Shown here: positions 17,711 through 19,729 of the stretch, piece after piece | How the letters are laid out: each line of letters opens with the position of its first letter | Numbering within the stretch: the first letter of the stretch is position 1 | The notes under the pieces: generated by a model | Told to the model about the DNA's origin: nothing | The model's database searches: none | Seen by the model: only the letters and a program-made list of their open reading frames with translations | Translations under genes and position numbers: made by a program | Source: Corallococcus interemptor | Lineage (GTDB): Bacteria; Myxococcota; Myxococcia; Myxococcales; Myxococcaceae | NCBI RefSeq assembly: GCF_050270115.1 | Contig: NZ_JBNNJP010000025.1 | Reading direction: 5' to 3' (one strand) | Length of the DNA: 64,000 bases

Positions 17711-17968
17711 ATGCGCGGGCCCGCGGACATCCCCCTCGGAGGACACATGAAGCCGTCGCGACTGAAGCAGACGATTCCCGGACTCGCGTTGATCATTGGC
17801 ATTGCCGCGGGCTCGGCCCTGGCCATGGTGCCCGGTGCGAAGGCGGAGACGGACGACACCCAGGCGGTCCGGATGATCTGTTCGGCCAGCTGCAAGCCGT
17901 GCACGACCCAGTACGACTGTGGCGACAGGGAAGGCTCCTGCGGGGTCTGGCGCTGCACCAACCCGTAG
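17711..17968 (+). CDS. Small secreted Cys-rich peptide precursor (6 Cys in a 40-aa mature region)
   Basis: Signal peptide (M)KPSRLKQTIPGLALIIGIAAGSALAMVPGAKA followed by ETDDTQAVRMICSASCKPCTTQYDCGDREGSCGVWRCTNP. GGAGGA lies 3 nt before the alternative ATG at 17747. Confidence 0.45.
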   Translation: MRGPADIPLGGHMKPSRLKQTIPGLALIIGIAAGSALAMVPGAKAETDDTQAVRMICSASCKPCTTQYDCGDREGSCGVWRCTNP

Positions 17969-18013
17969 CGCGCATTGAGAGCCTCCGGGTCCCTGGACCC
18001 GAAGGTTTTCTTC

Positions 18014-18943
18014 ATGGCCATGCGTCTTCGGACATGCGGCGCCGCGCTGCTCCTGCTCGTCTTCTCCGCCTGCGCCACGACGGAGCCACGCACCCGAGCA
18101 CCCGCGGCCCACGGAACAAGGATCTCCAACCTCCGGCGAGCGGCGGCGCTTCCCTGGAGGGATGGTGGGCGGTGCGTCGTCCGCGAAGCGTCCCGGCCCT
18201 GGCCCGTGCTGGTGGAGCGGTGCTATCCGGCCCTCGACCATGACCGGGTCGAGTTCCACGACACCACGGGAAGATGCACGGTCGCCTCGGCCGACGCCGC
18301 GACCGTGGGACTCGGTTTCTGCGTGCTGGCGGCCCCTGAAATCGCCCTGGGCGCGGTCATCGTCCTGGGGCTGGTGGTGGTTGGCGCCGCCATCAAGGAG
18401 GAACTGGATGCGTATGAACTCCGGCACCTCTATCCCGAGGAAGCAGGGACCTCACGAGGGACGAAGGTTGCGTCCCGAGATGCGGCAACGGAACGGGAGC
18501 CGAAGCTGGAACCGGAACCAGCGGGCCAGGGCAGGAAGCCGCCGGTGCCACCCGTGCCCCTGGACCGGACGGGCCGCGCCAGCTGCGAGCCGGTCCCGGT
18601 ACCTCACGCGGGCGAGGACCGCTGGCACAACGAGTGCGCGGACAAGTACCCACCCAACCGTTATCCCGGGATGGACGTACTTGTGGGCGGTGTACGCTTC
18701 GATGCGCTTCAGGTTGGCGTGCGCGTGTTGTGGGAAATCAAGACCCACCGGTTTGACACTTATAATCACTTCATCAAGAAGCAGGAGGCCCAGAAAGAAT
18801 TGCCTCAAATATCAAGGGAGCGAAGAGCTGCGGAGGCGTGTGGATTTGGCTTCGTCGTTGGGGTGAGCACCGAGGCGCATAAAGCGGCCCTGCAGGCACT
18901 GGAACCCACGCTTGATGTCGTCGTCACGGGGTGCACGCGATGA
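18014..18943 (+). CDS. Lipoprotein with a C-terminal PD-(D/E)xK-like (restriction-endonuclease-fold) domain; candidate polymorphic toxin
   Basis: Lipoprotein signal MAMRLRTCGAALLLLVFSAC, a central hydrophobic segment (GFCVLAAPEIALGAVIVLGLVVVGAAI), and a C-terminal HNECADK…GMDVLVGGVRFDALQVGVRVLWEIKT (D…ExK spacing typical of the PD-(D/E)xK fold). Confidence 0.55.
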   Translation: MAMRLRTCGAALLLLVFSACATTEPRTRAPAAHGTRISNLRRAAALPWRDGGRCVVREASRPWPVLVERCYPALDHDRVEFHDTTGRCTVASADAATVGLGFCVLAAPEIALGAVIVLGLVVVGAAIKEELDAYELRHLYPEEAGTSRGTKVASRDAATEREPKLEPEPAGQGRKPPVPPVPLDRTGRASCEPVPVPHAGEDRWHNECADKYPPNRYPGMDVLVGGVRFDALQVGVRVLWEIKTHRFDTYNHFIKKQEAQKELPQISRERRAAEACGFGFVVGVSTEAHKAALQALEPTLDVVVTGCTR

Positions 18944-19686
18944 TTCAGCCTGGTCAGCTCACCGTTATCGTTTACGCACCTGCGCTTTCGAAAAGCGATG
19001 GTCGCCCGGTTGATATCGTTCAAGGGATGGAGCAGGCGCTACCCGGCCTGCGCATGGATTGGGAAGTCGGCGAAGGAGGGCGCCTCATCGCCCTGTCGCA
19101 GCGCAACGCGTGGCTCGTGGAAAAGATTGAGGACGGGGGATTCCCCCTTTTGTGCAATGGGGACGAGAGTTATCCCGTGATGGTTTCTGGTAGGGAGCGG
19201 TTTGATGTCTTCAGTCCCGGCGGTCAGCCCCAATTCGAAGTGCACGCAGAACTGCCACTGGACAAGCCTGTAATCGCGGCGGCCTCGGCGCTGCTGGAGG
19301 CCGTGGCGGAAGGGGCGCGTTCGTACTGGGGCCATGCGTCGCCGTATGGTTACGGCACGGAAGTCGCGCAGCAGTTCCGCCGCTCTCCAGACGCCCCCGA
19401 GCTGTCTCCCCGTGGGCTCCCCATGCTCAACATGCCTGAGAAGAGCCCCAGGCCGGAGACGCCGTATTTCTTGGGGTGGCTGAACTACTGGTCCGCCGCC
19501 GCCGCGGAGGTCATCGGGTTCCCGGACCCTGCTCGCGATGCCGAGCTGCTCTCGCGGGCACGTCGAACCCCATCCGGCGGGTGGATCGTGCAGCTCACGG
19601 ACACGCCGCTCGACTACGACAACCCCGCCCACCTGGCCGCGCTCAAGCGGACCTACGAGCGCTTCCCAGCAATCGGCGGGCGCTGA
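18940..19686 (+). CDS. Hypothetical protein translationally coupled (ATGA overlap) to the upstream lipoprotein; candidate immunity protein
   Basis: The ATG at 18940 overlaps the TGA stop at 18941-18943. 248 aa, no signal peptide, no recognised motif. Confidence 0.5.
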   Translation: MIQPGQLTVIVYAPALSKSDGRPVDIVQGMEQALPGLRMDWEVGEGGRLIALSQRNAWLVEKIEDGGFPLLCNGDESYPVMVSGRERFDVFSPGGQPQFEVHAELPLDKPVIAAASALLEAVAEGARSYWGHASPYGYGTEVAQQFRRSPDAPELSPRGLPMLNMPEKSPRPETPYFLGWLNYWSAAAAEVIGFPDPARDAELLSRARRTPSGGWIVQLTDTPLDYDNPAHLAALKRTYERFPAIGGR

Positions 19687-19719
19687 ACCGCTGCCCGGCC
19701 ATGAGCCCGGGCAGCGGTT
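19686..19719. terminator. Perfect 13-bp-stem hairpin (AACCGCTGCCCGG-ccatgagc-CCGGGCAGCGGTT) between convergent genes
   Basis: Lies immediately after the TGA of 18940..19686 and before the stop of 19730..20419 on the other strand, so it could terminate both. Confidence 0.5.
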
Positions 19720-19729
19720 CCATCCCTGC

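Follow-up and report, generated by a model that had tools for sequence, protein, structure and literature searches.

What is the function of a pair of overlapping genes that occupies positions 18014 to 19686 of a 64,000-nucleotide stretch of the Corallococcus interemptor genome (assembly GCF_050270115.1, contig NZ_JBNNJP010000025.1; the whole stretch is called the window below)? An initial annotation, made from the sequence alone, had proposed that the two open reading frames, ORF1 and ORF2, encode a polymorphic toxin and its immunity protein resembling the Sit pairs of myxobacteria. The toxin-immunity core of this proposal has held up with regard to fold, residues, pairing, alleles, and copy number, and the Sit-like part stays an analogy. 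We consider it probable that the locus is a two-gene polymorphic nuclease toxin-immunity cassette that acts by the mechanism proposed below. The fold, the catalytic-type residues, the gene pairing, the tandem arrays, the replacement of alleles, and the modularity of the proteins were all established by computation. The features that carry the argument are as follows:

18014..18943, + strand: ORF1, predicted lipoprotein nuclease toxin, 309 aa (open reading frame list and translation, Pfam DUF6310, homologues)
18566..18940, + strand: DUF6310 domain, residues 185-309, with a predicted PD-(D/E)xK / Tox-REase-5-like fold and residues H205, D210, D221, D230, E241, and K243
18764..18913, + strand: hypervariable patches, residues 251-275 and 291-300, a candidate immunity-specificity surface (column entropy)
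18940..18943, + strand: ATGA start/stop overlap coupling ORF2 to ORF1 (sequence; kept in strain AB047A)
18940..19686, + strand: ORF2, a DUF5953 protein of 248 aa and candidate immunity protein (remotely Imm52/TsiT-like)

The case for a nuclease begins with the C-terminal domain of ORF1. Residues 185-307 match the whole Pfam profile DUF6310 (PF19829; E 1e-55, 187.7 bits against a cut-off of 27), and the motifs HNECADK, GMDVLVGG, and LWEIKT, in which a D...E-x-K arrangement had been noticed earlier, are all present inside this domain. In the AlphaFold model of ORF1, only residues 190-309 are predicted with confidence (predicted local distance difference test, pLDDT, >90). When the toxin domain was searched with Foldseek, the top two matches had probabilities of 0.99 and 0.85, and the best of these was TseT, a validated interbacterial toxin, at an identity of 7-9%. 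As modeled, the C-terminal ~120 residues are a restriction-endonuclease (PD-(D/E)xK) fold, which is the nuclease fold that the initial annotation had anticipated. TseT and its Burkholderia homologues are DNases, and mutating their conserved D and K abolishes activity (PMC9990079). Conservation was assessed in 40 divergent DUF6310 domains drawn from 50%-identity clusters. H205, D210, D230, and W240 are each present in all 40, D221 and K243 are each present in 39, and position 241 is E in 37 domains and D in the other 3. The D, E, and K residues singled out at the outset are therefore kept among homologues, and the catalytic-type set extends beyond them to include H205, D210, and D230. Judging from this conservation, the probable active site comprises H205, D210, D221, D230, E241, and K243.

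The second gene leads to the partner of the same protein. ORF2 matches the full Pfam profile DUF5953 (PF19378; E 1e-112, 375.8 bits against a cut-off of 25), and its product looks cytoplasmic, as had been claimed, with no signal peptide or hydrophobic segment (maximum Kyte-Doolittle value 1.26). In structure, ORF2 comes closest to TsiT, the Imm52 protein that confers immunity to TseT; the underlying model is weak, however (pLDDT 60.7), and the match is suggestive only. The second structural match, 4rho (BPSL2088), is also the best sequence-level match in the PDB (E 0.26-0.48). Tox-REase-5 effectors are known to pair with Imm52 immunity proteins (10.1101/835710), and some relatives of ORF2 already bear the name "Immunity protein 52 domain-containing" in their source records. 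On the modeled structures, ORF2 is probably a remote relative of TsiT. Because the toxin and the downstream gene each independently point to halves of one complex, we read the pair as a remote relative of Tox-REase-5/Imm52 and take it to work in a similar manner, yet outside of those Pfam families. The conserved C-terminal third of ORF2 (residues 169-240, 19444-19659) also collects weak matches to Imm52, to the phage-defence candidate PDC-M17B (E 0.002), and to 4rho, which hints at a wider superfamily of Imm52-like proteins.

The two genes are found together wherever the family was located. We detected 889 relatives for ORF1 and 1463 for ORF2, and thus these open reading frames are not chance occurrences. 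One C. interemptor entry matches the ORF2 protein at 100% identity, and all named relatives come from Myxococcaceae- and Archangiaceae-type genera, except for two entries labelled Comamonas. The 120 closest relatives of ORF1 are 63-91% identical and conserved over nearly the full length. Invariant in close relatives are C20, C54, C70, C88, C103, and P108-E109 in the hydrophobic segment, as well as the motifs HNxCAD, PPNRYPGMDV, FDALQ, WEIKT, GVS, and a terminal TGCxR. A scan of species-representative genomes located 195 loci, and several Corallococcus species have at least 5 in a genome. At 80/80 DUF6310 loci from such genomes, the gene immediately downstream is a DUF5953 gene in the same orientation, in keeping with the earlier claim that an immunity gene directly follows the toxin gene, and the tblastn matches for toxin and immunity protein abut or overlap in most of these 80 related loci. 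Here the ORF1 TGA (18941-18943) shares the ATGA with the ORF2 start codon at 18940, and the same 4-bp overlap occurs in the conspecific strain AB047A.

The number of copies differs from one species to another. The locus between the vault protein gene and rdgC holds one pair in the window versus three tandem pairs in C. coralloides CP034669 (L001 6266-11682), one of them with a 90-aa immunity remnant. At a second C. coralloides CP034669 locus (L002 6405-13465) there are four pairs, two with shortened immunity genes. Across the arrays, the truncation of DUF5953 genes to 90, 171, and 222 aa suggests that some cassettes are decaying or orphaned. In M. virescens, one pair lies amid unrelated housekeeping genes, and tblastn revealed no second copy of the cassette within the 64-kb window. 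The possibility that the pair might be conserved as single-copy housekeeping genes, raised at the outset, is not what we observe, because the pair is multi-copy and variable in number.

A comparison with C. interemptor AB047A, with which the window is colinear, demonstrates how sharply allelic variation can be confined. The flanks are 97-100% identical, whereas identity between 18637 and 19636 falls to 68-86%. The following segments differ in amino acid identity and in synonymous divergence (dS):

Toxin residues 126-245: ~96% amino acid identity, dS 0.22-0.58
Toxin residues 246-307: 61% amino acid identity, dS 1.19
Immunity residues 1-60: 52% amino acid identity, dS 0.72
Immunity residues 181-248: 97% amino acid identity, dS 0.26

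The high dS values indicate that the divergent block was imported rather than evolved in place. Related strains therefore carry variable toxin C-termini, a check that the initial annotation had proposed, and the divergent alleles comprise exactly the toxin C-terminus and the immunity gene. The same regions stand out among 83 toxin-immunity pairs. Column entropy reaches 1.6-1.8 at toxin residues 251-275 and 291-300 versus 0.3-0.8 in the catalytic core, and variability in the immunity protein is concentrated in residues 1-170. Distances between toxin variable regions track those between immunity N-termini (Mantel r 0.45), whereas distances between toxin N-terminal modules do not (Mantel r 0.06). 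This co-variation is consistent with a co-diversifying interface without proving one.

Modularity provides a further line of evidence. A profile search of 1.84 billion representative proteins returned 365 relatives, in which both halves of ORF1 prove to be exchangeable, and this is the defining pattern of polymorphic toxins. The DUF6310 domain is found at the extreme C-terminus after eCIS_core/DUF4157, DUF4280 (PAAR-like), Transglut_core, CBM_2, and other lipoprotein N-termini; in one protein (P0353), for example, a PAAR-like DUF4280 domain is combined with a hydrophobic region and with DUF6310. DUF4157 is a known N-terminal marker of toxins of extracellular contractile injection systems (eCIS) (PMC8213781). 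The N-terminal module of ORF1 (lipobox, NLxRAAxLPWxDxGxC domain, and helix) is also present on Ntox16, HExxH-like, unassigned, and short six-Cys C-termini (P0280, which carries Ntox16, P0251, P0276/P0330, P0327, P0338, and the six-Cys variants). In the two contexts read, the genes that follow such alternative-toxin variants are a 149-aa open reading frame with a 4-bp overlap (L085) and an Imm33-like gene (L086). Thus, one C-terminal toxin domain is common to proteins with different N-terminal trafficking domains, one N-terminal module carries alternative toxins with different downstream genes, and an immunity gene follows immediately downstream in arrays with extra or remnant cassettes. All of these traits belong to the polymorphic toxin concept (Zhang et al. 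2012, PMC3482391, as cited in PMC8546572).

Among the proteins that share the module are five (P0298, P0317, P0335, P0346, and P0304) in which it is followed by a six-Cys domain of ~40-70 aa without a Pfam match. The cysteines of this domain follow the pattern C-x6-C ... C-x2-C-x3-C ... C. These C-termini may be small disulfide-rich toxins or zinc-binding modules.

The N-terminal half of ORF1 is relevant to how such a nuclease might travel, and it can be divided into four parts:

18014..18073, + strand: type II (lipoprotein) signal peptide, residues 1-20, lipobox F-S-A-C, Cys20 (alignment)
18074..18304, + strand: conserved N-terminal domain, residues 21-97, predicted periplasmic (alignment; low-confidence AlphaFold2 model)
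18305..18394, + strand: predicted hydrophobic transmembrane helix, residues ~98-127 (Kyte-Doolittle, AlphaFold2)
18395..18565, + strand: linker, charged and rich in Pro, residues 128-184, variable and predicted to be disordered (pLDDT, entropy)

The protein begins with MAMRLRTCGAALLLLVFSAC followed by ATTEP, with lipobox FSAC and Cys20. This cysteine is invariant in 26/26 aligned homologues, and the lipoprotein signal peptide assigned earlier can be accepted on that basis. A lipobox was recognised in 66/83 family members, most commonly as LSA-C (40). Of the 71 members scored, 68 have Ala at +2, and the lipobox has no Lys there. Of the invariant positions listed above, C54, C70, and C88 belong to the N-terminal domain, along with the motif NLxRAAxLPWxDxGxC, and C103 and P108-E109 belong to the helix. 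The best 19-residue Kyte-Doolittle window of this helix scores 2.55 in ORF1 and 2.77 on average in 83 members, and the AlphaFold2 model places a long helix at 108-139. Because K+R per 15 residues is 0.02 before the helix and 2.1 after it, the predicted topology puts the N-terminus outside the cytoplasm and the C-terminus within it. The linker that follows has a pLDDT of <50 and a column entropy of 1.0-1.7.

The initial annotation had called this internal helix atypical. It is instead conserved in the family, and it travels with DUF6310 in other architectures. In 16 of 30 divergent DUF6310 proteins with >100 upstream residues, including DUF4157, DUF4280, transglutaminase, and CBM2 types, a hydrophobic segment lies 40-110 residues upstream of HxxCAD, and profile alignments to several of these divergent proteins begin at or just before the helix (~profile positions 69-100). 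We infer that helix, linker, and nuclease constitute one cassette.

From these observations a mechanism can be proposed. ORF1 would be made as a lipoprotein consisting of a type II signal peptide, a lipidated Cys20, the Cys domain, the helix, a flexible linker, and the nuclease, and translation of ORF2 would be coupled to it via the ATGA overlap. ORF2 would most likely block the nuclease domain by allele-specific binding, with likely contacts between its variable N-terminal two-thirds and the toxin hypervariable helices at 251-275 and 291-300. The toxin would kill related myxobacteria that lack the matching immunity allele and might thereby serve kin discrimination. In the target, the helix would insert into the inner membrane, N-terminus out and C-terminus in, and deliver the nuclease into the cytoplasm. 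Perhaps the protein passes from producer to target by outer-membrane exchange (OME), which is one candidate route.

Several points weigh against this reading. Toxicity, nuclease activity, and neutralisation are all inferred. ORF1 lies below the Pfam threshold for Tox-REase-5 (PF15648), with no match at E <= 1 for it or for any of 26 homologues, and ORF2 lies below that for Imm52 (PF15579), where residues 174-241 score 11.5 bits against a gathering score of 25 (E 0.23). Imm52 appears at E <= 1 in 4/29 DUF5953 members, the best at 0.056 and all below threshold. Single-sequence and profile searches of PDB sequences with both proteins gave nothing significant, the sole lead being 4rho, and searches of NCBIfam gave no match for ORF1, ORF2, or the neighbours. 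The co-variation of toxin and immunity protein could partly reflect physical linkage in one recombination block. The nuclease domain has four conserved cysteines (C191, C208, C276, and C307; 18584-18934), whose losses come in pairs, and C208 and C307 are lost jointly in 4 of the 40 divergent domains, which suggests that they are paired. Such losses hint at disulfides, which would fit poorly with the producer cytoplasm. A further difficulty concerns topology, because the helix is expected to act as a stop-transfer sequence in the producer. The protein should then stay in the inner membrane and its nuclease in the cytoplasm of the producer itself, and export to another cell would be unexplained. 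On the flanks of the loci examined there are no secretion-system, sitB-like, or mobile-element genes.

These difficulties invite other explanations. It is conceivable, though unlikely, that the family is identical to the published SitA7 toxins of OME, such that ORF1 would be an outer-membrane lipoprotein given to TraA-compatible neighbours and neutralised by SitI7. SitA7 is a lipoprotein, described as "a predicted DNase", with a non-modular toxin domain (one toxin family with many alleles), and it was cloned from M. fulvus HW-1 (PMC8546572). DUF6310 genes are present in that strain, among them two in tandem, LILAB_04580 and its neighbour, and its proteins AEI62835 and AEI62837 are relatives of ORF1. 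Within Myxococcaceae nearly all family members share the same toxin domain. The restriction of relatives to Myxococcaceae- and Archangiaceae-type genera is also as expected for SitA7, as is a lipobox with Ala and no Lys at +2, which is the outer-membrane criterion applied to SitA1 (PMC5562445). Moreover, a saturating screen with SitA7 gave no cell-envelope entry factor (PMC8546572), which a self-inserting helix would fit. However, SitA escort domains are ~375 aa long (PMC8546572), whereas the whole ORF1 protein has 309 aa, and a strongly hydrophobic helix is hard to square with Lol-dependent outer-membrane sorting. Myxobacterial genomes are said to carry several alleles per SitA family (PMC8546572), yet the 120 best relatives include no M. 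xanthus protein, not even in a search started from the M. virescens copy; absence from these 120 is suggestive and no proof that the species lacks the gene. Neither DUF6310 nor DUF5953 is mentioned in the literature searched, and neither are the locus tags of M. fulvus HW-1. We regard the pair as a new family, or at least one unpublished under these names, within the known class of polymorphic nuclease toxin-immunity systems, SitA7 having been compared by its published description. If the family is SitA7 after all, then the locus is simply already known.

Topology is better accommodated if the protein never leaves the cell. In such a membrane-anchored toxin-antitoxin module acting in cis, ORF2 would hold the cytoplasmic nuclease inactive until an envelope signal (phage, damage, or starvation) at the lipidated periplasmic domain freed it, leading to abortive infection or developmental cell death. 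The predicted N-out/C-in orientation, the cytoplasmic and translationally coupled partner, and the lack of secretion genes seen near the loci examined agree with this idea, and an origin from toxin-antitoxin systems has been proposed for Tox-REase-5/Imm52 pairs (10.1101/835710). The weak match of ORF2 to PDC-M17B in PADLOC points the same way, but ORF1 has no PADLOC match, and we did not retain a reading as a defence system on one weak match. We judge a cis-acting module to be improbable, because the helix-linker-DUF6310 cassette also ends PAAR-like (DUF4280) and eCIS-type (DUF4157) proteins, which are delivery contexts, and because a lipobox and N-terminal module common to unrelated toxins suggest a function in trafficking. 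Interbacterial polymorphic toxins also typically show tandem arrays in which immunity genes survive as remnants, as well as the joint replacement of toxin tip and immunity gene between strains. The syntenic chromosomal core genes on either side (a major vault protein homologue, RdgC, peptidases, and a LysR regulator) might instead suggest a housekeeping membrane nuclease and its regulator, e.g., for DNA uptake or repair. This is very improbable, because the same locus holds one versus three pairs in different species, genomes carry many paralogues, conspecific alleles differ sharply despite near-identical flanks, and the structure searches rank a toxin and the matching immunity protein first. 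Given that copy number and alleles vary, we rejected it.

A polymorphic nuclease toxin-immunity cassette thus remains our preferred reading, and it can be given a more specific form. We suggest tentatively, and with more doubt than conviction, that ORF1 belongs to a seventh, hitherto undescribed family of polymorphic lipoprotein toxins in myxobacteria, in which a short Cys domain and a self-inserting helix would serve as the "escort" and act as a delivery-independent, self-translocating module. If this is true, then lipoprotein, PAAR-like (T6SS, the type VI secretion system), and DUF4157 (eCIS) carriers would reuse one helix-linker-DUF6310 entry cassette, and the "escort" would be something other than a large domain for hijacking the host's transporters.

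The remaining features concern the operon itself. The coordinates of both genes, the lipobox, and the ATGA overlap were all found in the sequence where the initial annotation had placed them. Homologues of ORF1 begin at the second ATG (18020, MRLRTC...). Two regulatory features frame the pair:

18001..18005, + strand: Shine-Dalgarno-like GAAGG, 8 nt 5' of the ORF1 ATG (sequence inspection)
19685..19720, + strand: 14-bp GC-rich hairpin straight after the ORF2 stop (RNA fold)

The hairpin at 19685-19720 has a predicted free energy of -34.8 kcal/mol (z -5.27, with 0/200 shuffles as stable) and closes the operon. It has no T-run, hence the terminator scan did not list it, and it is likely to be a terminator common to the cassette and the convergent downstream gene. 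Upstream, a small hairpin and T-run (17986-18001) follows a small open reading frame and stands just before the GAAGG. A scan for sigma-70 promoters found none, and such a scan is uninformative for a myxobacterium with 68% GC. G+C content is 0.65 across ORF1 versus ~0.70 on both sides.

Several neighbouring genes deserve mention. Directly upstream of the toxin locus, and in the same place in C. coralloides, a gene on the - strand (15071-17344) encodes a 757-aa homologue of the eukaryotic major vault protein, with Vault, Vault_2/3/4, and MVP_shoulder domains (E down to 3e-45) and a long coiled-coil C-terminus. Another gene on the - strand that is conserved in C. coralloides (12152-13774) encodes a 540-aa protein with LysM and a T6SS_VgrG3-like C-terminal (muramidase-like) domain, possibly a secreted cell-wall hydrolase as judged from its domains. 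RdgC and peptidases are encoded downstream of the cassette. Between the vault gene and ORF1, a + strand open reading frame (17747-17968) that ends 45 nt 5' of ORF1 encodes a predicted secreted peptide of 73 aa, with a signal peptide, six Cys in a mature part of ~40 aa, and a faint DUF6520 match. We considered this small Cys-rich gene as a third component and rejected it, since it is present at the syntenic locus (including in C. coralloides) and not at other DUF6310 loci.

The proposed functions would extend well beyond this locus. DUF6310 and DUF5953, which have hundreds to thousands of members in social myxobacteria, would gain roles as a nuclease toxin and its immunity protein, and if confirmed, they would add a further large set of variable loci to the myxobacterial "self-identity barcode" that decides strain coexistence. 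How SitA toxins cross the inner membrane has been stated as an open question (PMC8546572), and the helix common to lipoprotein, PAAR-like, and eCIS-type carriers offers a lead on the passage of a nuclease through the target inner membrane.

The closest known counterpart is TseT-TsiT of P. aeruginosa (PA3907-PA3908), which provides the best structural match to both proteins from one crystal complex (9oz0 chains B and A). Together with TseTBg of Burkholderia gladioli, it represents T6SS effectors with a Tox-REase-5 domain (PF15648) and their Imm52 (PF15579) immunity proteins. ORF1 resembles TseT in its predicted PD-(D/E)xK fold, its conserved acidic and lysine residues, and the immunity gene directly downstream. 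Unlike TseT-TsiT, the present pair belongs to separate Pfam families (DUF6310/DUF5953) and has no significant sequence similarity to the known one (7-15% identity). TseT is delivered by the T6SS with a PAAR protein and chaperones, whereas ORF1 has a lipoprotein signal, another N-terminal module, and a predicted transmembrane helix, and no T6SS genes are nearby.

The SitA/SitI toxins of myxobacteria (families SitA1/2, 3, 4, 5, 6, and 7) are delivered by OME that depends on TraAB. With the SitA toxins ORF1 shares a lipobox without Lys at +2 and an N-terminal module that precedes a C-terminal nuclease and is reused with other toxins. As in SitA/SitI, an immunity gene follows in one operon, many loci occur per genome, and the distribution is confined to Myxococcaceae- and Archangiaceae-type genera (PMC8546572, PMC5562445). 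Membership in SitA1/2 and SitA3 was rejected on length, because their N-terminal regions measure 507 aa in SitA1 and 441 aa in SitA3 (PMC5562445) and the ORF1 module has ~100 aa plus the helix. SitA6 is PF09533 with PF09535 immunity (PMC12077181), and membership in this family was rejected because a Pfam search with ORF1 and ORF2 found no PF09533, AHH, or Imm11 match. The loci examined also differ from those of SitA in having no sitB gene or mobile element. For SitA1, outer-membrane sorting was predicted from the lack of Lys at +2, and inner-membrane lipoproteins are not exchanged by OME (PMC5562445). The ORF1 lipobox would qualify for outer-membrane sorting under this criterion, but the transmembrane helix predicts otherwise, in that it would hold ORF1 in the inner membrane. 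Delivery of ORF1 by OME is thus suggested by analogy only.

Two further classes of toxin bear on the helix and on the nuclease domain. In prePAAR/Tse6-type T6SS effectors, N-terminal transmembrane helices have been proposed to insert into the target inner membrane and carry the toxin across. ORF1 is similar in that a predicted hydrophobic helix and linker lie upstream of a toxin domain expected to act in the cytoplasm. It differs in having no PAAR or prePAAR domain or Eag-type chaperone gene, and in using a Sec/lipoprotein pathway by which the helix meets the producer inner membrane. Unlike eCIS toxins, ORF1 lacks a DUF4157 domain, and no eCIS genes are seen close to the locus in the window. 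Several other DUF6310 proteins, however, have precisely the layout of these toxins (PMC8213781), with an N-terminal DUF4157, a long linker, and a C-terminal toxin, and this arrangement marks DUF6310 as a toxin module.

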